IMG/VR virus record: IMGVR_UViG_2724679238_000012
Location: 1-27,285 of that record
Strand: one strand, 5' to 3'
Length of the DNA: 27,285 nucleotides
Origin: a virus
Taxonomy: Duplodnaviria > Heunggongvirae > Uroviricota > Caudoviricetes
The notes under the pieces were generated by a model. The model was not told the DNA's origin and made no database searches. It saw nothing but the letters and a program-made list of their open reading frames with translations. The number at the start of each line of letters is the position of its first letter. Within the stretch, counting starts at the first letter, position 1. The translations under genes were made by a program, and so were the position numbers. Shown one piece after another: positions 9,051 to 24,890 of this stretch.

Positions 9051-12000
9051 CTATATTTTTCCGCCTACGCCTTTAAACTTCTCAATAAACGAGACGATTT
9101 TCTGGAAAACTGCCTGTTTTTTCGTTTTATATTGCGGATTTAACGGACTAAGTTTTGGTAATGTTTCGTTTAATTCTGTGCCATTTTCGGTGGCATATTC
9201 GCGTTTTAAAGACGTGCGAATATAGCGTTTTGCTGCCTCTTCATTGAGATTTTCTTCTTTTATCAATGCTTCTGCTTCACGTTGCTGTTCGCGTTGAGCA
9301 AACGTAAAGAATGCGTCAATGATGCTGGCTTTGTCCGGTAAATCATCCAGGTTCGTTTGCTGAATAAAATCGACCACCAGGCCCTCTTTAGCACGGTTCC
9401 CTAGGCTTGAACGAATTAAGCGTTTGACCTCTTCGATCATTTCGCCCTTGCCTTTATTTTGTCTGTTGTGTTCGAAAATCAGTCCAAGGATATAATCCAG
9501 GTTTATTTCCTGAGACTTCAGCAAATCGACCTCAAAAACTACGTCATCCCAGTCAGTGGTTGATTTCTCTTTTTTCTCAGCTTCTTTCTCACGGCGCTGC
9601 CAGTCGCGAATATCGTTATAGGCAGAACGATAATCCTGAATCTTGCGATCAGCAGGGAGACGAATTGTTTGCAATTCAGCGAACTTTTCATCATCCACAT
9701 AATGTTCTGCTTTGAATTTTTCTACCGCAACAGGATCGCTAAGATCGATTTGTTGCAGGGCTTTTAGCGTGGCAAATTCATCATAGTTTTGCAGGATGTT
9801 CTCGGCACGCAGGTATTCGCCAAACAGTTTAACGAAGTCTTTCTTCTCTTTTTCACTTTCAATACTGGTAGGGTCAGGGAACCGTTGTTCCAGTTCTGAA
9901 ACTACTGTCATGAAGCCGCGTTTAGCTTCACCAGTAGCAGCATCAGTAAAGCCTTCCATATACTCTGTATAACTCTTTTCTAACACCACATTTTTGGTGT
10001 TTTTGTCACCAAACAGCGTTATGGCATCAATAGTTGAGCGTTCCAGATCCCGAAAAGTGACGATATTACCGAAGGTTTTAGTTGCATCATAAATACGGTT
10101 GGTGCGGGAAAATGCCTGCATCAGGCCGTGAAAACGCAAGTTTTTATCGACGAATAGCGTGTTCAATGTTGGAGCGTCGAAGCCGGTTAAAAACATCCCA
10201 ACGACAATTAACAGATCGATATCCTGATTTTTAACCCGTTGGGCTAAATCACGATAGTAGTTCTGAAAACCGTTACTGTCGGTGCTAAAGTTAGTTTTAA
10301 AATGGCTGTTATATTCACGAATTGCAGCGTCCAGAAACTCTTTAGCACTGCTGTCCATTGCGCTGGTATCAAAAGTTTCATCGGAAATTTCACCAATGGC
10401 ATTTTGTTCTTCATTGGCGGCAAAGGAGAAGATTGTCGCAATACGCAGCGGTTTATAGGTAGCCGATTTATTAGCGGCTTCTTCTTGTAACCGTTTAAAC
10501 GTCGCATAATAGGCTTTCGCGGCATCCACGCTGCTCACTGCCAACATAGCATTAAAACCTTTTGAGCCAGGGAAGGTACGATGGGTTTTCTGGCGGAAAT
10601 TATTCAGAATATATTGCGTGATTTCCTGAATACGCATGGGATGAAGAAACGCCTGCTGATTTTCAGCCGCACTCAGTTTTTTCTCGTCAGTTTCTGTCTC
10701 TAAAGACTTAAACTGTGGCCGCACATCGTTGTAGTCCACCTTGAATTTGAGCACTTTTTCGTCACGAATCGCATCGGTAATTACATACGAATGCAATTCA
10801 CGACCAAATACGCTGGCGGTTGTTTCTGAGCCTAAGGCGTTTTCCGGGAAAATAGGGGTGCCGGTAAAACCAAACTGATAATAGCGTTTGAATTTCTTCT
10901 TCAGGTTTTTCTGAGCTTCTCCAAACTGGCTGCGGTGGCATTCATCAAATATAAACACCACTTGCTGATTATATACAGGCAGGTCGCTTTCTGCTTTCAT
11001 CAGGTTATTGAGTTTCTGAATAGTAGTGACGATAATTTTGTTATCGTCCTTATCCAGATTTCGTTTAAGGCCTGCGGTATTTTCCGAGCCGTTGACGCTG
11101 TCTGGCGAAAAACGCTGATATTCCTTCATGGTCTGGTAATCGAGGTCTTTCCTGTCGACCACAAAGAAAACTTTATCAATAAAGTCCAGTTCTGTTGCCA
11201 GACGCGCGGCTTTAAAGCTGGTCAGGGTTTTACCGGAACCCGTGGTGTGCCAGATATACCCACCGCTTTCCGGTTTTGACCAGTTCTTCGCTGTAAAGGA
11301 GCTCTTAATTTTCCACAGAATGCGCTCGGTGGCGGCAATCTGGTACGGTCGCATCACCAGTAGCGTCTGACTACTGTCAAAAACGCTGTAGTTCACCAGA
11401 ACATTCAGCAGAGTATGTTTCTGGAAAAAGGTAGCGGTAAAGTCTTTGAGGTCTTTAATCAGCGTGTTGTCTGATTTCGCCCAATTCATGGTGAAGTCAA
11501 AACTGTTTTTATCGCGCTTTGTCGTGTTGGCAAAATAACGGGTATCGGTGCCGTTAGAAATGACAAACAGTTGCAGATACTTAAACAGGGAATTTTCGCT
11601 GTTAAAACTCTCTTTACTGTAACGATGTATCTGGTTGAAAGCCTCACGAATCGCCACCCCGCGTTTTTTTAGTTCGATTTGCACCAGCGGTAAACCATTA
11701 ACCAGGATCGTGACGTCATAACGGTTAGCATGAGAACCCGTCTGTTCAAACTGCTGGATAATCTGCACCTTATTGCGCATGAGATTCTTTTTATCTATCA
11801 AATAGATGTTCTCAAGTCGCTCGTCATCAAAAATAAAGTCGCAAATATAGTCGATATGGATTTTACGGGTCTTATCCAGAATGCCATCGCTCGGGTTGTC
11901 CAGATACTGCTCCGTGAAACGCCGCCACTCGCTGTCATTAAACACCACACCATTGAGGCTCTGAAGCTGTTGTCGAACATTGGCCAGCATCGCCGACTGA

Positions 12001-12212
12001 GATTTTACGGATATAAATTCATAGCCCTGATTTCGCAGGTCCTGAATCAGTTCCTGTTCCAGGTCCGATTCGCTCTGGTAGCTGTCGCCTGTTGGCTCAG
12101 CTTTGATGTACTTATCAAGGACGATAAAGTTATTGGATTCAGCAATGGTGTGTGTTTGATGAGTCATAGCGCATCCTTTGTGCCGTCTGGCAAGGGCCGG
12201 AAGTTCCGGCAC
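9051..12212 (-). CDS. hsdR: Type I restriction enzyme R subunit (HsdR), helicase/endonuclease
   Basis: 1053-aa ORF with Walker A HTTGSGKT and DEAD/DECH box FIFDECH; size and position after hsdM-hsdS. Confidence 0.9.
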
Positions 12213-12273
12213 TTAAAAAATAGTCTATATACAGACCGGATGTTAAGGTGGCCCGGTCGGTAGCAATGGTCAA

Positions 12274-13509
12274 TTAATTACTGACAGTATCAGGTTTCGG
12301 GAAACTGAACAGTAAATCACGATAGTACTCGTATTGTTTCTGGCGCAACTCGATTTCACGCGGGAGCCCCTCGGTGATGGAGTTGGTCAGAGTATCGAAT
12401 TTGTCGAGTATTTCGACAATGCGAGCTTGCCAGGTGAGTGGCGGTACAGGGATTGGGTATTTTATTATATCCTCTTTACTGCCACGCGGCATTTTTGCTC
12501 CTTTAGCATGCTGCATGTTGTATTCAAAGAATTTGTCATCTGCCAAAATATGATATAGATATCTGGTATTTATTGAGCTATCTATACAACGAATAACCAA
12601 TACATCACCATTTGTTCCACCGATACAATCTGCTTGCCAAATTTTTTTCAAATATGGGCGGATATTCCCAATCAGTATATCGTTAGGTATAAACTCTGTT
12701 AATTTACCTGATGTCGGCACATGATTAGATAATGATTTTCCTGCTCTGTTTTGCAGCAGATTATCTACGCCAACATAATTCCTTTTATCAAGTAGTTCGA
12801 AACTAATTTTTGTTTTCGAGTATTGAGCTGCTTCTCCCAAAGTTTTCCACTCAACCTCGCCCTCTTTAAAACTCAACAACTGCTCGCGATAGTAGTTGTA
12901 CTGTTTTTTACGCATGTTAAGCTCTGCTGTCAGCTCTGCTGTCAGGGCGCTGAATGTGTCCAGAATCCGAACGATTTCAGACTGAATGGCAAGGGATTTT
13001 TCCGGATTTTCCGGACAGGGGATAGGGATAATAATTTTCGCCATATCCGATGCAGACACATCAATTACTTTAGTTCCCTTGGAGTATTTCCTTTTCTCAT
13101 TTGCAAAAGAATCCGTTTGCGTGAAATAGGCAAAGTATTTCCCAATAATAGTGCTATTTGGCTTGAAAATAGTTGCATGGCCACCAGTAACAGCTTGCTC
13201 TTTACCTAGATAAACAAGCGCCTTACCAACATCAGTAAAATTTTCGCTTGTGTTAGTAATAACAACATCACCAGAGTTAACCTTTTTAAGCTTCTTCGCC
13301 GTTTCATGGGAAACAAATGACTTTGTTGTTTCAGTAGATAATCCGTAAAAAGTATATATCTGACCATAGTGTATGGCAGGAACCCCTGATTCGGTAAAAT
13401 CAGACTTAGGCAATCCATTTCCACGAACTAATTCACCTAGTTTCCCCAATGGCAACCACTCAACCTCAACCCCATCCGGCAATTTTTCCAGATAACTCAA
13501 CTCGCTCAT
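12274..13509 (-). CDS. hsdS: Type I restriction-modification specificity subunit (HsdS), two target-recognition domains
   Basis: 411-aa ORF; conserved central and C-terminal repeats ([24 protein letters not shown] and [20 protein letters not shown]); ATGA overlap with hsdM. Confidence 0.85.
12921..12944. repeat. Two tandem copies of a 12-bp repeat (gctctgctgtca) encoding TAEL-TAEL in the HsdS central conserved region
   Basis: Seen directly in sequence and in the HsdS translation; the EcoR124I/II family is known to differ by copy number of this repeat. Confidence 0.8.
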
Positions 13510-15068
13510 TTCGGCACCTCGCAGCCTTCAATTTCAGCCACAATCGCATCAATATCTTTACGCAACTGGTCGATTTTGCTGACCGTGGTTTTCAGTTCTG
13601 CATTCAACTCAGCGATATCGATAATTTCGCGAGTATCTTTCGCTTCCACATAGCTGCTCACCGACAGGTTATAGTCATTAGCGACAACAGCCTCAAACGT
13701 GACAGATTTTGCCAGATGAGCAACATCTTCCTTGCTGGAAAATACCTGCATAATTTTTTCGATATGGGCATCGGTCAGGATGTTGTTGTTAGTCTCTTTT
13801 TTGAACAGTTCGCTGGCGTCAATAAACTGAACGTTGGTATCCGTTTTATGTTTAGACAGCACCAGAATATTTACGGCAATGGTGGTGCCAAAGAACAGGT
13901 TCGGTGCCAGTGAAATCACGGTTTCGACATAGTTATTGTCGACCAGATACTGACGGATTTTCTGCTCTGCGCCGCCACGGTAAAAAATACCCGGGAAGCA
14001 GACAATCGCAGCACGACCTTTGGCCGAAAGATAGTTCAGCGCATGTAATACAAACGCAAAGTCAGCTTTGGATTTGGGGGCCAGAACGCCAGCTGGGGCA
14101 AAACGCTCATCGTTAATCAGCGTCGGGTCATCGCTGCCAATCCATTTCACCGAATACGGCGGGTTAGAGACGATGGCATCAAACGGTTTTTCATCTCTGA
14201 AGTGCGGTTCAGTCAGCGTATTGCCCAGCTTGATATCAAACTTGTCGTAGTTGATGTTGTGCAAAAACATGTTCATACGTGCCAGGTTATAGGTCGTATG
14301 GTTGATTTCCTGTCCGAAAAAGCCTTCTTCAATGATATGGTTATCAAACTGCTTTTTAGCCTGCAACAACAGCGAACCGGAACCCGCGGCCGGGTCGTAG
14401 ATTTTGTTAACGTGGGTCTGCCCGTGCATAGCCAGTTGTGCAATCAGCTTGGAGACGTGCTGCGGTGTAAAGAACTCACCGCCTGACTTACCGGCATTTG
14501 CCGCATAGTTAGAAATCAGGAACTCATAGGCATCACCGAACAGGTCAATCTGATGTTCATTGAAGTCACCAAGGTTTAACCCTTCGACCCCTTTCAGAAC
14601 CGCAGCCAGGCGGGCATTTTTATCCTTAACGGTGTTACCCAGGCGGTTACTGGTTGTATCAAAATCAGCAAACAAACCTTTGATGTCAGCTTCTGAAGGG
14701 TAACCGTAAGCAGAGCTTTCGATAGCAACGAAGATACTATTTAAATCTGCATTCAGTCTGTCATTGGTATTTGCTTTCGCCGCTACGTTGCAGAAAAGCT
14801 GACTGGGGTAGATGAAGTAGCCTTTGGTTCTGATGGCATCGTCTTTAATGTCATCAGTAATAATGCCGTCATCAAGTGCCGCATAACAGATGCTGTCATC
14901 ACCATTTTCCATATAACTGGAAAAATTTTCGCTGATAAAACGGTAGAAAAGTGCGCCCAGAACGTATTGCTTAAAATCCCATCCATCGACCGAACCCCTG
15001 ACATCGTTAGCAATTTGCCAGATTTGACGATGAAGCTCTGCACGTTGTTGAATACTTGTCATTTTCAT
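13506..15068 (-). CDS. hsdM: Type I RM N6-adenine DNA methyltransferase subunit (HsdM)
   Basis: 520-aa ORF; motif [11 protein letters not shown] and motif IV NPPY (NPPYSVKW). Confidence 0.9.
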
Positions 15069-17189: not shown

Positions 17190-17657
17190 ATGTTACTTAA
17201 CTGGCAGGGACGCCACTTCATGGAAATAAATCACTCACGAATAACATCGTACGAGATTGCGGATTACATGATCCGCACTAAATCTCTTCTATCAGCGAAA
17301 GAACTCGCAGCAATTCTTGAAAAGGAATACCCGCATCTGGATGTCGATAAGCGCGATGTTTATCTGCGCTTAAAGGCTATCGCTGTGTCTAAGCATTCGT
17401 CTGTTTTGATTGATGACAGTACACGCCCACGTAGATTTCAGATCCACTCTCTGAATCCTGAATTCTTTCGCCGCAGCCGCGCTCCGCGCCGGTTTGATGA
17501 AAAACTCCAGAACGAACTCTATATGACGCAGGACGAAAAGGAACGCCGGGAGCACCAGCCTTGGGTGATGGCGCGTCAACTTTTCAATAAGGTGGTCCGT
17601 CAGCACCGTCATTACCCAGTGCGCCGTAAAGCCCCTTCCTTCCGGTCGGGGATATAA
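17190..17657 (+). CDS. lpa: Probable Lpa (late promoter activator) by position; start may be the Met at 17220
   Basis: 155-aa basic protein between the pdc genes and pacA as in the P1 gene order; a weak C1-operator-like site (aaattgccctaatgtattg) lies upstream at about 17103-17119. Sequence identity to Lpa not verifiable from memory. Confidence 0.45.
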   Translation: MLLNWQGRHFMEINHSRITSYEIADYMIRTKSLLSAKELAAILEKEYPHLDVDKRDVYLRLKAIAVSKHSSVLIDDSTRPRRFQIHSLNPEFFRRSRAPRRFDEKLQNELYMTQDEKERREHQPWVMARQLFNKVVRQHRHYPVRRKAPSFRSGI

Positions 17658-17659
17658 GG

Positions 17660-18960
17660 CGCGGTTTTCCACCTGGCTTTTTTTGTTTAAAATAGTGGGA
17701 TGAAACGACTACAAGCATTTAAATTCCAGTTAAGACCAGGTGGTCAACAGGAGCGTCAAATGAGGCGCTTTGCCGGAGCTTGTCGTTTCGTTTTCAATCG
17801 TGCCCTGGCACTTCAGAATGAGAATCATGAAGCCGGGAACAAATATATTCATTATGCAAAGATGACTTCCTGGCTGGTTGAATGGAAAAATGCTACTGAA
17901 ACGCAATGGCTTAAAGATTCGCCATCACAGCCATTGCAACAGTCACTGAAAGACCTTGAGCGGGCTTACAAAAACTTCTTCCAGAATCGGGCTGCTTTTC
18001 CCCGATTCAAAAAGCGGGGACAGAATGATGCATTCCGCTACCCGCAGGGCGTTAAGCTCGATCAGGAAAACAGCCGTATTTTTCTGCCGAAACTTGGCTG
18101 GATGCGCTACCGGAACAGCCGTCAAGTCACGGGCGTTGTGAAAAATGTCACGGTCAGCCAGTCCTGCGGTAAGTGGTACATCAGTATTCAGACAGAAAGT
18201 GAAGTATCAACTCCGGTTCACCCTTCAGCATCAATGGTCGGGCTGGATGCTGGCGTGGCTAAACTCGCCACGCTGTCAGATGGCACAGTCTTTGAGCCTG
18301 TAAACAGTTTTCAGAAAAACCAGAAGACGCTGGCGAGACTTCAGCGGCAGTTAAGCCGCAAGGTCAAATTCAGCAATAACTGGCAGAAGCAGAAACGCAA
18401 AATACAGCGACTGCATTTCCGTATCGCAAATATCCGCAGGGACTACCTTCACAAAGTCACAACGACCGTCAGCAAAAACCACGCAATGATTGTCATTGAG
18501 GATTTGAAGGTTAAAAACATGGCAAAGTCAGCAGCGGGTACGGTCAGCCAGCCGGGGCGCAATGTCCGGACAAAATCAGGTTTAAACCGTTCGATACTGG
18601 ATCAGGGCTGGTATGAAATGCGCCGCCAGCTTGAGTACAAGCAGCTCTGGCGTGGCGGTCAGGTACTGGCTGTTCCGCCAGCGTACACAAGCCAGCGTTG
18701 CGCGTGCTGTGGTCATACAGCGAAAGAAAATCGCCTGTCACAAAGTAAATTCAGATGCCAGGTATGTGGATATACAGCGAACGCCGATGTAAATGGCGCT
18801 CGTAACATTTTAGCGGCGGGGCACGCCGTACTTGCCTGTAGAGGGATGGTGCAGTCAGGCCGCCCGTTGAAGCAGGAACCAGACGCTGAGCAATCAGCCG
18901 TCACCCGCTAATGGGAATCCCCCTCCTGAGTCACGAAGTGCGACGGTGGGGGAGGATGTC
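17660..18960 (+). mobile_element. Probable IS200/IS605-family element remnant carrying tnpB only (no tnpA), with imperfect hairpin just 3' of tnpB
   Basis: No HuH/Y1 transposase ORF adjacent; imperfect inverted repeat atccccctcct...ggtgggggaggat at 18917-18957 immediately after the tnpB stop. Boundaries are approximate. Confidence 0.4.
17700..18911 (+). CDS. tnpB: IS200/IS605-family TnpB (OrfB) RNA-guided nuclease-like protein
   Basis: 403-aa ORF; Ruv[17 protein letters not shown], Ruv[14 protein letters not shown], zinc finger CACCGH...CQVCGY, Ruv[14 protein letters not shown]; resembles E. coli IS609-type InsQ. Confidence 0.85.
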
Positions 18961-18976: not shown

Positions 18977-20170
18977 GTGACCTGGGACGATCACAAGAAG
19001 AATTTTGCTCGCCTGGCGCGAGATGGTGGTTACACCATCGCACAATATGCCGCCGAGTTTAATCTCAACCCAAACACCGCACGTCGTTATCTCCGTGCCT
19101 TCAAAGAAGACACCAGGACTGCGGACAGCCGCAAGCCAAATAAGCCAGTCAGGAAGCCACTAAAAAGCATGATCATTGATCACTCTAATGATCAACATGC
19201 AGGTGATCATATTGCGGCTGAAATAGCGGAAAAACAAAGAGTTAATGCCGTTGTCAGTGCCGCAGTCGAGAATGCGAAGCGCCAAAATAAGCGCATAAAT
19301 GATCGTTCAGATGATCATGACGTGATCACCCGCGCCCACCGGACCTTACGTGATCGCCTGGAACGCGACACCCTGGATGATGATGGTGAACGCTTTGAAT
19401 TCGAAGCTGGCGATTACCTGATAGATAACGTTGAAGCGCGGAAGGCCGCGCGCGCTATGTTGCGTCGGTCCGGGGCCGATGTTCTGGAAACCACTCTTCT
19501 TGAAAAGTCTCTTTCTCATCTCCTTATGCTGGAGAACGCCAGGGATACGTGTATTCGCCTGGTGCAGGAAATGCGCGATCAGCAAAAAGACGATGATGAA
19601 GGTACTCCGCCTGAATACCGTATCGCGAGCATGCTAAACAGCTGTTCCGCGCAGATAAGCAGCCTGATCAACACCATTTACAGCATCCGGAATAACTATC
19701 GAAAAGAAAGCCGGGAGGCGGAAAAGCACGCTTTGTCTATGGGGCAAGCTGGCATTGTTAAGCTGGCATACGAACGAAAGCGTGAAAATAACTGGTCAGT
19801 GCTGGAAGCAGCTGAATTCATCGAGGCGCATGGCGGGAAAGTGCCGCCCCTGATGCTGGAGCAAATCAAAGCCGATCTGCGTGCTCCTAAGACCAATACC
19901 GATGATGAGGAAAACCAAACAGCATCTGGCGCTCCATCACTTGAAGATCTGGATAAAATCGCGCGAGAACGGGCCGCCAGCCGCCGCGCTGATGCCGCAT
20001 TGTGGATTGAGCAACGTAGAGAAGAAATTGCCGATATCGTCGATACAGGTGGTTATGGTGATGTCGATGCGGAAGGCATATCAAACGAAGCATGGCTTGA
20101 ACAGGATCTGGACGAAGACGAGGAGGAAGACGAAGAAGTTACCCGCAAACTGTACGGGGATGATGATTAA
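18977..20170 (+). CDS. pacA: PacA, terminase small subunit (pac-recognition component)
   Basis: 397-aa product with GTG start; contains the pac site; size and sequence consistent with P1 PacA. Confidence 0.9.
19168..19330. other. pac packaging site: 4 + 3 clustered TGATCA-type hexamers (7 GATC Dam sites) flanking the cleavage region
   Basis: GATC at 19171, 19178, 19190, 19205 and at 19301, 19313, 19324, all in TGATCA/TGATCG context, inside pacA. Confidence 0.85.
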
Positions 20171-21654
20171 TGGCCAGAAGTTGCGTAACGGACCCACGTT
20201 GGCGCGAGCTGGTGGCGCTATATCGTTATGACTGGATTGCGGCCGCTGATGTGTTGTTTGGGAAGACACCAACCTGGCAGCAGGATGAGATCATTGAGTC
20301 CACGCAGCAGGACGGCAGTTGGACAAGTGTGACCTCCGGCCATGGTACTGGTAAGTCGGATATGACGAGTATCATTGCAATACTCTTCATCATGTTTTTC
20401 CCCGGCGCTCGCGTTATTCTGGTCGCTAACAAAAGACAGCAAGTCCTTGATGGTATTTTCAAATACATAAAGAGCAATTGGGCTACTGCTGTTAGCAGAT
20501 TCCCGTGGTTGTCGAAGTATTTCATTCTTACAGAAACGTCTTTTTTTGAGGTGACTGGCAAGGGTGTTTGGACAATATTGATAAAGTCCTGTCGCCCCGG
20601 AAATGAGGAGGCGTTGGCTGGTGAACACGCCGATCATCTCTTGTATATCATCGACGAAGCGTCGGGTGTGAGTGATAAAGCATTCAGTGTGATAACAGGT
20701 GCGCTGACCGGTAAGGATAACCGTATTCTGCTTCTTTCCCAGCCTACGCGACCTTCAGGCTATTTCTACGATTCACACCACAGACTAGCTATTCGCCCGG
20801 GAAATCCTGATGGATTGTTTACTGCGATAATACTGAATAGTGAAGAATCTCCGCTTGTAGATGCAAAATTTATACGAGCAAAACTTGCGGAGTATGGCGG
20901 TCGTGATAACCCCATGTACATGATCAAAGTACGTGGTGAATTTCCCAAATCTCAAGATGGCTTTCTTCTTGGTCGTGATGAGGTTGAGCGGGCGACGCGG
21001 CGAAAGGTCAAGATTGCCAAAGGATGGGGCTGGGTTGCATGTGTTGACGTTGCTGGTGGCACAGGACGAGATAAGTCCGTTATTAATATCATGATGGTGT
21101 CCGGCCAGCGAAATAAACGCCGTGTAATCAACTATCGTATGCTGGAATACACAGACGTTACAGAAACGCAGTTAGCCGCCAAGATTTTCGCAGAATGTAA
21201 CCCAGAACGGTTCCCGAACATAACCATAGCTATTGATGGCGATGGCTTAGGGAAATCGACGGCTGATCTGATGTACGAACGCTATGGTATTACCGTCCAG
21301 CGTATCCGCTGGGGGAAAAAGATGCACAGCCGTGAAGATAAAAGCCTTTATTTCGATATGCGCGCTTTCGCGAATATTCAGGCGGCAGAAGCTGTAAAAT
21401 CAGGGCGTATGCGGCTTGATAAGGGGGCTGCGACTATAGAGGAAGCATCAAAGATACCGGTAGGGATAAATTCCGCAGGTCAATGGAAGGTGATGTCAAA
21501 GGAAGATATGAAGAAAAAACTCAACCTGCACTCACCGGACCATTGGGATACATATTGTTTCGCTATGTTGGCGAACTATGTTCCCCAAGATGAAGTGCTT
21601 AGCGTCGAAGACGAAGCGCAGGTTGATGAAGCTCTGGCATGGCTTAATGAGTGA
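20170..21654 (+). CDS. pacB: PacB, terminase large subunit
   Basis: 494-aa ORF whose ATG overlaps the pacA stop (TAATG); size matches P1 PacB. Confidence 0.9.
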
Positions 21655-21657
21655 AAA

Positions 21658-21674
21658 CTTGCTCTAATAAATTG
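21658..21674 (+). promoter_or_regulatory. C1 operator (CTTGCTCTAATAAATTG, 15/17) just after pacB
   Basis: Seen 4 nt after the pacB stop, followed by TTGACT. Confidence 0.6.
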
Positions 21675-21806
21675 TGTTTTTTGACTACCGATGTTACATT
21701 GAACCTGACCTCTTGCGCCTTGAGGCATTTTCGGTTTATGCTTATCAGGCACCTCATTAAAACGGGTGCCGGGATTGAGACCCCGGATAATGTCAAAGGC
21801 GACACA

Positions 21807-21829
21807 GACGCCGAAAGCGTCTTTTTTTT
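21807..21829 (+). terminator. Rho-independent terminator (gacgc-cgaaa-gcgtc + T8)
   Basis: 5-bp GC stem, 5-nt loop, then tttttttt on the plus strand. Confidence 0.5.
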
Positions 21830-21869
21830 GTGTCATGCCATCGCACAGCCATACGTAGCGTTTAGCTCC

Positions 21870-21995
21870 GAGATCAATGGTAGTGCTGGCTGGGCTGCCG
21901 AAAGGCAGGCCGGTTCCCTTTGACGCCGGTAGTCTCAACCCAGTCAGTGCTACCGCCATTGAGATTGAGACCTCACGCGGTAGCTCCTTAACTTA
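21870..21995 (+). ncRNA. Candidate c4-like antisense RNA / structured regulatory leader upstream of the icd-like ORF
   Basis: GNRA-loop hairpin ctgcc-gaaa-ggcag; ctaccg can pair with upstream cggtag or downstream gcggtag; loop gtctcaacc is complementary to attgagac, which occurs in loops at about 21772 and 21965. Boundaries and strand are a guess. Confidence 0.3.
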
Positions 21996-22014
21996 GTCAA
22001 AGGAGGCTGCCATT

Positions 22015-22236
22015 ATGGCTACTATCCCTACCCCAACTCATCCTGAATTTATCTGGCGCTTTTACTCCTGCCAGAAACGTCACTATCACTTCGTTATCGC
22101 AACAACAGAAGATGAGGCTCGCTCTCAGCTTCCGGATGCTCCCTGCATTTTCTCTGCCCGTTTTTCCACTGATTTGTGCAATTCTCTCAGTTACTGGTGT
22201 CTCCCTGTTAACGCTTCTGCTCAGGAGGGACTATGA
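22015..22236 (+). CDS. 73-aa Icd-like small protein, translationally coupled to ant
   Basis: Strong RBS AAAGGAGG; stop overlaps ant ATG (ATGA); same length and arrangement as P1 icd, but sequence identity not verifiable from memory. Confidence 0.45.
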   Translation: MATIPTPTHPEFIWRFYSCQKRHYHFVIATTEDEARSQLPDAPCIFSARFSTDLCNSLSYWCLPVNASAQEGL

Positions 22237-23348
22237 GAACGTCATTAGTCACCCGTGAAGAGATGATCGAGGCAATTGAACAGCATACCGCCTGTATCAG
22301 TACCAGGGATATACCGGGCGTTATTGCCAACTATTTCATGATCACCAAACAACTTTACCGGAGAAAGGACAAGAACGCGGTTCACCGTATCCTGTTGTCT
22401 GATATCCGCGAATACCTGCTCGAACAGGGGCATCTGAATTACGCAACCATCGCAGCCGAAGCACGCAAGGAGGCACACAGAATGAAAGCAACTAACGTTA
22501 AATCAGAAAAAATTCATGCAACTTCAGTTCAGAAATCGGAGCTGGTGGTTGCTCAAAATCAGCCGGATGAAATTCCCGTTCTGGAGTGGCAGGGGGTGCG
22601 TGTAGTGACAACCGAGACTCTTGCTAAAGGGTATGGGACAGAAACAATCCGTATTCGCCAGAATCATCATGAGAACAAAGTGCGCTTTGTTGAAGGGAAG
22701 CACTTTTTCAAGGTTATTGGCGATGAGCTGAAAAATTTGCGGGTAGCTTTAAACTACTCACAAAATCCAGTCTCACCCAAAGCCCGCTCACTCACTCTCT
22801 GGACAGAACGCGGCGCTGCCCGTCACGCTAAAATGCTCGAAACCGATCAGGCATGGGCATTCTTTGAAAAACTGGAAGACAGCTACTTCCGACAAAAAGA
22901 ACAGCAACCGATCGCAATCCCCCAGACGCTTCCAGAAGCCCTGCGTCTGGCTGCCGAACTGGCTGAACAAAAGCAACTTCTGGAACAGAAAGCCCACCAG
23001 CTAAATCAGCAGCTGGTGGCCGCCGCTCCTAAAGTCGATTTTGCCGACCGGGTATCAGTAGCTAAAGGGATCCTGATTGGGAATTTTGCAAAGGTTGTTG
23101 GACTTAAGCAAAACGCGCTGTTTGCCTGGTTACGGGAGAACGGCATCCTGATAGCGTCCGGTGGACGTAAAAATGTGCCGTTCCAGCAGTACATCAATGC
23201 GGGGTATTTCACGGTGAAAGAAGTGGTGCTGGATGATGAAGATGGCTACCAGATACGGTTGACGCCTCAATTAACGGGTAAAGGCCAGCAGTGGTTGACG
23301 CGTAAACTGCTCGATGCTGGCTTGTTAAAACCGGTGGCGGCTGAATAA
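22233..23348 (+). CDS. ant: Phage antirepressor (Ant-like), ORF6N/Bro-N-type N-terminal region plus KilAC-type C-terminal domain
   Basis: 371-aa ORF; VLEWQGVRVVTTETLAKGYG...NKVRFVEGKHFFKV resembles ORF6N; C-terminal IASGGRKNVPFQQYINAGYFTVKEVVLDDEDGYQIRLTPQLTGKGQQWL typical of KilAC antirepressor domain. Confidence 0.75.
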   Translation: MRTSLVTREEMIEAIEQHTACISTRDIPGVIANYFMITKQLYRRKDKNAVHRILLSDIREYLLEQGHLNYATIAAEARKEAHRMKATNVKSEKIHATSVQKSELVVAQNQPDEIPVLEWQGVRVVTTETLAKGYGTETIRIRQNHHENKVRFVEGKHFFKVIGDELKNLRVALNYSQNPVSPKARSLTLWTERGAARHAKMLETDQAWAFFEKLEDSYFRQKEQQPIAIPQTLPEALRLAAELAEQKQLLEQKAHQLNQQLVAAAPKVDFADRVSVAKGILIGNFAKVVGLKQNALFAWLRENGILIASGGRKNVPFQQYINAGYFTVKEVVLDDEDGYQIRLTPQLTGKGQQWLTRKLLDAGLLKPVAAE

Positions 23349-23380: not shown

Positions 23381-24232
23381 TTATTGCGCGCTTTCGGGGT
23401 TGTCGTTTACTGGCTGCCCCTTCTTGGTTTTACGGCTGCGCGTAACTGATGCGGCTGACTTAACCTTTTTCTCTTCGCGAGTGATGGCAATTTGTTTTTT
23501 TACATTTTCAATATCTGCCAGGCGATATATTTTTGCTTGCGGCCAGCGGTCGCAGATGATCGGTTCTATGGAGTCATAAAGGCTAAATTTTGCTTTTTCG
23601 AATTCACCGTTGATGATAATTCCATCACGGAGAGTTTCATCGCAGATAAACACGCCACACAGTGGCACATGGTAACTAACTGATTTACCATCATTGTAGT
23701 TAGGGCTACTGGAAATGTAGTGGACGCGCAGCATTGTTTCGCTAAAGCCGTGTACGCGCATACGGAATTTTTCATCCTCCGGGTACTGCTTCATTAGCTC
23801 TTTTGTTGCTTCCAGGTTCTCTATGTATTTCGCACTGTGCTCATTGATCCCCGCGCTTTTTTGGATGCGAATGTCCTTATCAATCAGATGAATAATGCGG
23901 CCAGCGGTCATGTTGACGCTGTTCACAGCTTCTGTCTGATAAGTTGTAACCTTACGCACACCGCGAAGGATGTTAGGCACTGGATATAAAATAGTCTTTG
24001 GGATATTGAGGTCTGGGTACTGTTCCAGTTCCCGCGCCATTAAAGTCCATTTATCAATTTCAGCCTGAATGCTGTCAGTTTCTTTGAACGGTAGAACGAC
24101 AACCGGGCGTACAGGACGACCGTCGCTGGCTGTATCAACGTGTTGGGCGCGTGCAACAGCTTTTTTTAGAAAGAGATCCCTGAAGCTGACGAACTCCTGG
24201 TACAGTTGTTCGCCGTAGACATAATTTATCAT
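23381..24232 (-). CDS. c1: C1 repressor (master repressor of lysogeny)
   Basis: 283-aa product MINYVYGEQLYQEFVSFRDLFLKKAVARAQHVD... recognised as P1 C1. Confidence 0.95.
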   Translation of the reverse strand: MINYVYGEQLYQEFVSFRDLFLKKAVARAQHVDTASDGRPVRPVVVLPFKETDSIQAEIDKWTLMARELEQYPDLNIPKTILYPVPNILRGVRKVTTYQTEAVNSVNMTAGRIIHLIDKDIRIQKSAGINEHSAKYIENLEATKELMKQYPEDEKFRMRVHGFSETMLRVHYISSSPNYNDGKSVSYHVPLCGVFICDETLRDGIIINGEFEKAKFSLYDSIEPIICDRWPQAKIYRLADIENVKKQIAITREEKKVKSAASVTRSRKTKKGQPVNDNPESAQ

Positions 24233-24326: not shown

Positions 24327-24343
24327 AGATTTATTAGTGCATT
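24327..24343 (-). promoter_or_regulatory. C1-operator-like site between coi and c1 (Op99a/b position), 14/17
   Basis: agatttattagtgcatt compared to the reverse complement of the consensus; overlaps the coi stop. Confidence 0.4.
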
Positions 24344-24790: not shown

Positions 24791-24807
24791 TAATTTATTA
24801 GAGCAAT
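24791..24807 (-). promoter_or_regulatory. C1 operator (reverse complement ATTGCTCTAATAAATTA, 16/17), Op99 cluster
   Basis: Seen in sequence upstream of coi. Confidence 0.7.
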
Positions 24808-24873: not shown

Positions 24874-24890
24874 ATTGCTCTAATAATTCT
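24874..24890 (+). promoter_or_regulatory. C1 operator (ATTGCTCTAATAATTCT), Op99 cluster, 44 bp from loxP
   Basis: Seen in sequence; followed by the same TTGATTTTTA element as the operator at 8786. Confidence 0.6.

Follow-up and report, generated by a model that had tools for sequence, protein, structure and literature searches.

What does the 360-nucleotide (nt) gap between pacB (20170-21654) and a 73-codon open reading frame (ORF; 22015-22236) encode in the virus record IMGVR_UViG_2724679238_000012, a member of the Caudoviricetes whose positions 1 to 27,285 were analysed here and are referred to as the window? An earlier note on this DNA, made from its letters only, had proposed that an antisense RNA and its target sites are cotranscribed in the gap, as in the c4 system. 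This proposal was supported by a match to the Rfam C4 family, a fold maintained by compensatory changes, co-variation in 56 variants, the presence of Icd and Ant genes and an operator-like site. The 360 nt between pacB and icd hold two known RNA genes and their targets, and not the "ash family protein" and hypothetical ORFs that annotation pipelines place there. It is highly probable that the module provides the RNA control of an anti-repressor operon of the immI type in a P1-like phage-plasmid, and we are confident that this operon runs in the order C1-operator-like site, candidate promoter, isrK/seqA-like short RNA, c4, leader, icd and ant. Family membership, fold, both complementarities with their co-variation and the gene context were observed directly, and they are described first.

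The C4 RNA and its downstream targets comprise the following features, for which we use the names "loop" and "junction" instead of a and b, for C4 segments and sites alike (in the APSE-7 record, the loop is called a' and the junction b').

21873-21960, + strand: C4 antisense RNA gene (Rfam RF01695, 75.4 bits against a cut-off of 45, E = 2.8e-13, model positions 1-87, full length)
21914-21925, + strand: loop of C4 hairpin 2 with the recognition segment CCUUUGAC(G) (segment CCUUUGAC at 21917-24), with complements at 21792-99 and 21996-22003
21931-21938, + strand: single-stranded junction of C4 with the recognition segment GUCUCAA (21932-38), with complements at 21775-81 and 21965-71
21965-21971, + strand: downstream junction target UUGAGAC, at +4 to +7 from the C4 3' end in 55 of the 56 variants
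21996-22003 (feature 21996-22006), + strand: downstream loop target GUCAAAGG, overlapping the icd Shine-Dalgarno sequence GGAGG (22002-06)

In the Rfam fold, a closing stem of 17 base pairs (bp; 21878-94 with 21939-55) encloses a GAAA hairpin (21895-21908), hairpin 2 with its 12-nt loop (21909-30) and the 8-nt junction (21931-38), which is single-stranded. According to the literature, RNAs of this family are cut out of the primary transcript by RNase P to give a stable, trans-repressing species of about 77 nt; here, a mature RNA at about 21879-21957 (about 79 nt) is predicted from an alignment with the c4 misc_RNA of P7, annotated with 77 nt. RNAalifold recovered the three-helix fold that is typical of the family. 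Folding and covariance, by which the earlier proposal could be checked, both came out in its favour: the 286-nt region folded with z = -5.03, none of 200 shuffles folding equally well, and across the 56-sequence alignment the C4 fold was 99.2% paired, with compensatory changes at 18 of 27 pairs. Its covariation score was 0.538, compared with at most 0.116 for slid controls, and 0 of 500 shuffles were as good. No tRNA-like gene was found in the RNA region by ARAGORN. When the isolated C4 RNA was folded, loop and junction segments were both predicted to be unpaired, the junction with a probability of at least 0.99. The letters on which the earlier reading had been built are all present (ctaccg at 21950-55, cggtag at 21927-32, gcggtag at 21977-83, attgagattgagacc at 21958-72 and gtctcaacc at 21932-40), and the GAAA hairpin that had been put at about 21893-21908 exists with its start at 21895. 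By contrast, gtctcaacc, which had been read as a hairpin loop, is the single-stranded junction of the three-helix fold.

As in other members of the family, two exposed C4 segments are complementary to two downstream sites, one of which lies on the ribosome-binding site of the first ORF. The complementarity between gtctcaac and ttgagac was correctly recognized in the earlier note: GUCUCAA at 21932-38 matches UUGAGAC at both 21775-81 and 21965-71. A target overlapping the ribosome-binding site had also been expected, and it does exist, although it is GUCAAAGG at 21996-22003 and not UUGAGAC, which lies about 35 nt upstream of the Shine-Dalgarno sequence. This target belongs to a second complementary pair that the first reading had missed, in which the loop CCUUUGAC is matched by two copies of GUCAAAGG. 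The repeated motif of the first reading, an apparent tandem "attgagattgagac", is partly coincidental, since in most homologs a conserved flank, GAGATT, precedes a variable 7-mer. Both target sequences are concentrated at this locus: TTGAGAC occurs four times on the two strands of the 27 kb, three of them here within 200 nt, and GTCAAAGG likewise occurs four times in 27 kb, three of them here within about 230 nt, a count of four being reached by 1 of 100 shuffles.

To compare the module across genomes, 59 further loci were sampled by means of the conserved ribosome-binding-site and start motif GAGGCTGCCATYATGGCTAC, with one genome per species; a C4 RNA stood at a fixed distance in 59 of the 63 genome loci with the motif. 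Among 75 loci we counted 47 distinct loop sequences and 28 junction sequences in 56 combinations, and in nearly every combination both segments were complemented at the same four places. The mean complementary run between the loop and the downstream site was 9.96 nt for cognate and 5.37 nt for non-cognate pairs, while a junction 7-mer match (at least 7 nt) at the downstream site was found in 100% of cognate and 1.8% of non-cognate pairs. Counted from the C4 end, the downstream loop target stands at +35/+36 in nearly all variants. Judged from these sequences, nothing speaks more strongly for a function of the predicted pairings than their three-way co-variation. The motif GAGGCTGCCATYATGGCTAC itself (22006-22020, comprising Shine-Dalgarno sequence, spacer and the first codons MAT...) is almost invariant from Aeromonas to Escherichia in the 59 genome loci, whether the protein encoded downstream is of the Icd, Rha or Ant type, and looks like a part of the RNA module, not of the protein.

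Both C4 targets are present a second time upstream of C4, within a short RNA of another known family.

21749-21829, + strand: isrK/seqA-type short RNA with two hairpins, a single-stranded stretch, an intrinsic terminator and the upstream copies of both C4 targets
21775-21781, + strand: upstream junction target UUGAGAC in the 8-nt loop of the hairpin 21769-21786, exact complement of C4 21932-38
21792-21799, + strand: upstream loop target GUCAAAGG, complementary to the C4 loop 21917-24 and co-varying with the loop across homologs
21806-21829, + strand: intrinsic terminator AGACGC-CGAAA-GCGUCU followed by U8, found by a terminator scan (stem 21806-21822, U-run to 21829)

The Rfam model RF01394 (isrK) matched 21749-21827 with 60.2 bits (cut-off 50, E = 8.9e-11), a score above the gathering threshold, and a Rho-independent terminator, as the family requires, is in place. 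The hairpin and terminator that had been read earlier at 21762-21781 and 21807-21829 are real, with shifted boundaries: the hairpin is CCGGG-AUUGAGAC-CCCGG at 21769-21786, and the terminator stem begins at 21806. Membership in c4-a1b1 (RF03163) was considered and rejected, as that model reached 22.3 bits at 21736-89, under its cut-off of 46.7; in P1 and P7 it scored 51 and 55.5, and there the isrK model was sub-threshold. The upstream element is thus equivalent in position to c4-a1b1 but belongs to the isrK-type branch. Either isrK or c4-a1b1 was followed by C4 in all 15 phage loci examined, which include P1, P7, P4, D6, APSE-7, phiP27, a Salmonella phage and Stx1 and Stx2 phages. The upstream copies, which recall a1/b1 and seqA, are conserved and co-varying. 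The UUGAGAC at 21775-81 has a predicted unpaired probability of about 1.0, a stem of 4 bp or more encloses the equivalent junction site in 52 of the 56 variants, and a U-run lies 3' of the upstream sites in 50 of the 56. By analogy with known systems, the upstream copies could be a decoy titrating C4, as the trans-acting IsrK of Gifsy-1, or a termination site, as seqA of P4; the window sequence fits a decoy and seqA-like termination alike.

The earlier note had also described mutually exclusive pairings of ctaccg, either with cggtag upstream or with gcggtag downstream. The downstream alternative forms one further hairpin.

21949-21984, + strand: alternative hairpin, in which the 3' strand of the C4 closing stem (21949-56) pairs with GCGGUAGC (21977-84) and UUGAGAC is in the loop

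This helix was 93.7% paired in the 56-sequence alignment, with compensatory changes at 6 of 8 pairs and a covariation score of 0.417 (at most 0.112 in slid controls). It is present in the minimum free energy structure of the unprocessed RNA and is mutually exclusive with the C4 fold; given its conservation, the pairing 21949-56/21977-84 is therefore a genuine alternative to that fold in unprocessed RNA. The other half of the claim did not hold, as the pairing 21927-32/21950-55 was 59% paired in the 56 homologs, no better than shuffles, so that it was dropped from the conserved structures; upstream, ctaccg has its conserved partner in UGGUAG (21878-83), which forms the 5' strand of the stem that closes C4. 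A further pairing of 21979-84 with GCUGCC (22006-11, between the Shine-Dalgarno sequence and AUG) was compatible in 87.8% of the alignment cells. No compensatory change was seen for it in the alignment because one of its strands is invariant, and we retain it solely as a possibility. For the whole read-through RNA (21749-22030), two nearly isoenergetic states were predicted: one of -113.3 kcal/mol, in which the C4 loop and junction are bound in cis by the upstream sites, and one of -112.3 kcal/mol, in which C4 is folded. In the processed leader, the icd Shine-Dalgarno sequence is predicted to be mostly paired with GCUCCUU (21983-89).

The RNA genes are preceded by an operator-like site and a candidate promoter, and followed by two protein-coding genes.

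21658-21674, + strand: predicted C1-repressor operator-like site CTTGCTCTAATAAATTG, with 2 mismatches (15/17) to the consensus ATTGCTCTAATAAATTT
21713-21742, + strand: candidate sigma-70 promoter TTGCGC, 18-nt spacer, TATGCT, as read from the sequence
22015-22236, + strand: icd-like gene, 73 amino acids (aa; NCBIfam NF033153 Icd-like, 49.9 bits; PHROG 1426)
22233-23348, + strand: ant anti-repressor gene, 371 aa (Pfam ANT/KilAC and ORF6N; PHROG 63)

The operator-like site starts four bases past the pacB stop codon and aligns with the annotated Op(c4) of P7 together with a flanking TTGT(A/G)TTTTT segment; P1 aligns as well. Nine C1-operator-like sites were found in the window, where 0.2 were expected. 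The other eight, with at most 3 mismatches, are at 3021-3037, 6645-6661, 6694-6710, 8786-8802, 20866-20882, 24327-24343, 24791-24807 and 24874-24890, one of them inside pacB. The candidate promoter ends 7 nt 5' of the isrK model start and aligns with TTGACC-17-TATAGT of P1 and P7, an alignment from which its assignment as a promoter entirely derives.

The icd ATG is at 22015, 9 nt 3' of the Shine-Dalgarno sequence, and the Icd homolog is 78% identical to P7 Icd over residues 11-73. As expected for an immI operon, the ant ATG overlaps the icd stop codon in a 4-nt ATGA (22233-36), which is the same in P7. Ant shares 55% identity with P7 Ant1 and is P1-like at its ends but not in its middle: the N-terminal ~90 aa and the C-terminal KilAC part of ~140 aa are near P7 Ant1, and an ORF6N domain replaces the middle. 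On the opposite strand, a 283-codon ORF (23381-24232) follows that is annotated as repressor C1 in RCS47 and in plasmid records.

How would such a module work? The processing of C4, its block of translation and the resulting effects on Ant and C1 have reportedly been worked out in P1 and P7 by Citron and Schuster (in 1990 and 1992) and by Biere et al. (in 1992), and by homology with these phages the same course of events is the most likely one here. Transcription would start near 21749, and some transcripts would end at the intrinsic terminator (21806-29) to give an RNA of about 80 nt, while others would read through. From the read-through RNA, a C4 RNA of ~79 nt (~21879-21957) would be excised; its fold would consist of a long closing stem and two hairpins, one capped by GAAA and the other with a loop of 12 nt. 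The junction GUCUCAA and the loop CCUUUGAC would serve as an address in two parts, the junction pairing with UUGAGAC at 21965-71 and the loop with GUCAAAGG at 21996-22003 on the icd Shine-Dalgarno sequence. This pairing of C4 with the leader would block translation of icd and, via the ATGA coupling, that of ant too, and the message would probably be exposed to premature termination, as reported for P1. In the absence of Ant, the C1 repressor would stay active and lysogeny would be kept. The repression of Ant by c4 has been summarised (PMC8198154), as has the P1/P7 mechanism (PMC8546580).

Several observations weigh against this account. A consensus promoter scan of 21300-22400 found none, and the candidate promoter is a weak match to the consensus. 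The single-site duplex energies of C4 with its targets are -12 to -14 kcal/mol, and 2-5% of shuffled sites are as good; as these energies are just modestly better than those of shuffles, the case rests on the comparative evidence. The icd Shine-Dalgarno sequence is predicted to be largely paired already in the free leader (unpaired probability 0-0.1 at 22001-04), so that repression may not be the simple occlusion of an open site. Finally, the module may be a silent extra copy, because related elements also carry the canonical immI.

Two other modes of RNA action would leave the same parts in place. As in P4, C4 might act mainly on transcription, via the nascent upstream (21775-81, 21792-99) and downstream sites, so that premature termination, including that at 21806-29, and hence less read-through into icd-ant would replace the block of ribosome binding. 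This is possible, though we think it unlikely to be the principal mode: the cassette is nearer to P4 than to P1/P7 (blastn matched P4 with 75.8% identity across C4, and P1/P7 inside icd only), the upstream sites lie directly 5' of a conserved intrinsic terminator, and the CI RNA of P4 is reported to terminate transcription via seqA and seqC (PMC4825925, PMC3632133), yet in nearly all variants the loop target reaches from +35/+36 into GGAGG, the placement needed for a translational block, and the genes that follow are icd and ant, coupled as in P1. Both modes may operate together. Considerably less probable is a leader switch acting purely in cis, in which alternative pairings (C4 5' strand with 3' strand, 3' strand with 21977-84, and 21979-84 with GCUGCC at 22006-11) would control icd translation or termination within one molecule, without a diffusible antisense RNA. 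The conserved alternative hairpin 21949-56/21977-84 with its compensatory changes (6/8), the two nearly isoenergetic states of the read-through RNA and the pairable 21979-84/GCUGCC strands (87.8%) speak for such a switch, and structures of this type have been demonstrated experimentally in isrK-orf45 of Gifsy-1 (PMC4825925). A cis switch leaves unexplained, however, why an upstream RNA with a terminator of its own should carry both address segments again and why there are 56 address variants, the signature of trans-specificity (heteroimmunity); moreover, P1/P7 c4 and P4 CI act in trans according to literature and annotation, and the pairing 21979-84/22006-11 is without compensatory change.

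A different reading is that the region encodes small proteins instead of, or besides, RNAs, namely a 39-aa "Ash family" ORF (21877-21996) and ORFs that annotators place on either strand. This ORF matches Pfam Phage_ASH (PF10554) with 28.3 bits (cut-off 26) and is named "ash family protein" by PGAP, and PHROG matches exist on both strands. PHROG 6928, a "transcriptional repressor", matches the ORF at 21877-21996 (+), and PHROG 16848 matches an ORF at 21576-21959 (-); Pfam gave no match to the minus-strand 127-aa ORF. In 80% of 55 homologs, the Ash frame stays open over 35 codons or more, compared with 36% and 18% for the other two frames, and the ORF at the corresponding position in Gifsy-1, "orf45", is reportedly translated and required for coupling (PMC4825925). 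The + frame of 21877-21996 is in frame with the downstream ATG in 37 of the 55 homologs. Nevertheless, the substitutions are compensatory for RNA helices and not synonymous, the frame closes early in P1, where c4 is genetically an RNA, no Shine-Dalgarno sequence is evident 5' of 21877, and the conserved ATG belongs to the C4 closing stem; we consider a protein-coding role improbable. Because the helix changes are compensatory and the frame is closed in P1, the Phage_ASH and PHROG families were probably built from translations of RNA genes. A dual RNA and protein function is conceivable, given the unusually open frame in homologs and the reported translation of Gifsy-1 orf45. Returning to the immI-type antisense module, we suggest tentatively that it may be a three-RNA toggle and not a simple repressor, with an isrK-like sponge, a bistable read-through RNA and up to three stacked orthogonal modules. 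The isrK-like RNA, in which exact copies of both C4 addresses' targets are exposed, could be a sponge or anti-antisense RNA for C4, and loop and junction segments appear to have been recombined independently to assemble addresses. If this is true, several independent RNA locks would gate the release of the anti-repressor.

We compared the module with related elements. The closest DNA relatives are RCS47 (96.2% identical), JL22 (94.5%), D6 (93.9% over the RNA part) and 673R5 (84%). Megablast and blastn of the RNA region against P1 and P7 gave no match, and the blastn match to P1/P7 lies solely within icd. The pacB-c1 insertions of RCS47, JL22, 673R5 and pTZ20_1P have the same position and gene order as here. 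In RCS47, the sequence is 96.2% identical over 601 nt and that of C4 is identical, and its record annotates only "ant" there, neither c4 nor icd; the pacB-c1 insertion has been described as "two short hypothetical orfs and an antirepressor" (PMC6906374). A canonical P1-type c4 is also found elsewhere in RCS47, JL22, 673R5 and D6, and the module here is an extra one beside the canonical immI. We found no description in the literature of the insertion as a complete isrK-C4 cassette with its own address beside the canonical immI. As to other parts of the window, 9051-15068 (-) is a segment common to the phages phi456 and 673R5, and an IS605-family element (17190-18911, +) lies just upstream of pacA, with a 155-aa ORF followed by a 403-aa TnpB that contains OrfB_IS605 and Cas12f1-like TNB domains.

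A second c4-icd region has been noted for D6-like plasmids (PMC6799933). In D6, this second c4-icd-ant region is 93.9% identical to ours across isrK, C4 and leader and has the same junction address, whereas its loop address differs by 2 nt (CCCUUUUGC), a change that is compensated in both targets. JL22 carries the D6 loop allele, UUUUGC where the window has UUUGAC, with both targets changed to match. From these sequences, the difference between the window and D6/JL22 would be that of a heteroimmune pair like P1 and P7. D6 has no C1-operator segment upstream, and its context differs, being beside ref and pmgF.

In PLSDB, 322 plasmids hold at least 80% of the 1.8-kb module, and many IncY plasmids match. 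The closest plasmid, pNJS001-1 (NZ_CP114131.1), is 99.7% identical and carries three C4 RNAs with three different address pairs and a degraded fourth (on our stretches L079-L081, at L081 22260-22347, L080 22594-22679, L081 10534-10619 and L079 536-621). Each of the three address pairs adjoins its own icd-ant pair, one C4 combines a P7-type loop with a P1-type junction, and the fourth C4 is a degraded window-type copy in a large duplicated segment. Single plasmids can carry three orthogonal C4 specificities. The "ant insertion" that is widespread between pacB and c1 in P1-like plasmids of resistance and virulence is a complete, C1-linked cassette for antisense immunity whose specificity is its own. 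These findings matter for superinfection immunity, prophage induction and the compatibility of co-resident phage-plasmids, and the 56 co-varying address/target triplets constitute a natural library of orthogonal RNA regulator-target pairs.

Modules of this kind are already known from P1/P7 immI, P4 CI/seqA and Gifsy-1 IsrK, and the one described here has been mostly unannotated. With P1/P7 immI (Op51/Op(c4), a1-b1, c4, a2-b2, icd, ant1/2) it shares a homologous operator-like and promoter segment, a C4 family RNA with two address segments, each complemented upstream and downstream and one of them on the icd ribosome-binding site, and the proteins Icd (78% identical) and Ant (55%) with the same ATGA overlap. 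It differs from P1/P7 in that the RNA part is not P1-like in DNA and has other address sequences, the upstream element is isrK (60 bits) and not c4-a1b1 (22 bits), Ant has an ORF6N middle domain, and the module is located between pacB and c1 instead of at the canonical immI locus, relatives carrying both. The immunity region of P4 (seqA, CI RNA, seqC) contains isrK-like and C4-like RNAs above the Rfam cut-offs in the same architecture of duplicated complements; however, 108 nt lie between its two RNAs, it controls replication genes and not icd-ant, and it is reported to act by transcription termination (PMC4825925). For that CI-dependent termination, P4 seqA is needed (PMC4825925, PMC3632133). 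The name "IsrK-C4 immunity system" has been given to this type, with IsrK corresponding to P4 seqA and C4 to CI, and with a relationship to P1, P7 and N15 (PMC3632133). In the IsrK/STnc1160/orf45-anrP region of Gifsy-1, there is likewise a short RNA of the isrK family with a leaky terminator, followed by a processed RNA and an anti-repressor, and alternative cis structures of near-equal energy, predicted here, were shown experimentally there (PMC4825925). Hfq binding, partial read-through and trans action on the read-through transcript are features of the isrK family known from Gifsy-1 IsrK alone (PMC4825925); unlike in our module, the short RNA is reported to be a trans-activator of a silent message, the ORF in the C4-like region is translated, and icd is missing. 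The cassette in the window is therefore a mosaic: a P1-type operator and promoter segment comes first, then an isrK-C4 RNA part of the type found in D6, P4 and lambdoid phages, and then icd and ant with P1-type ends.

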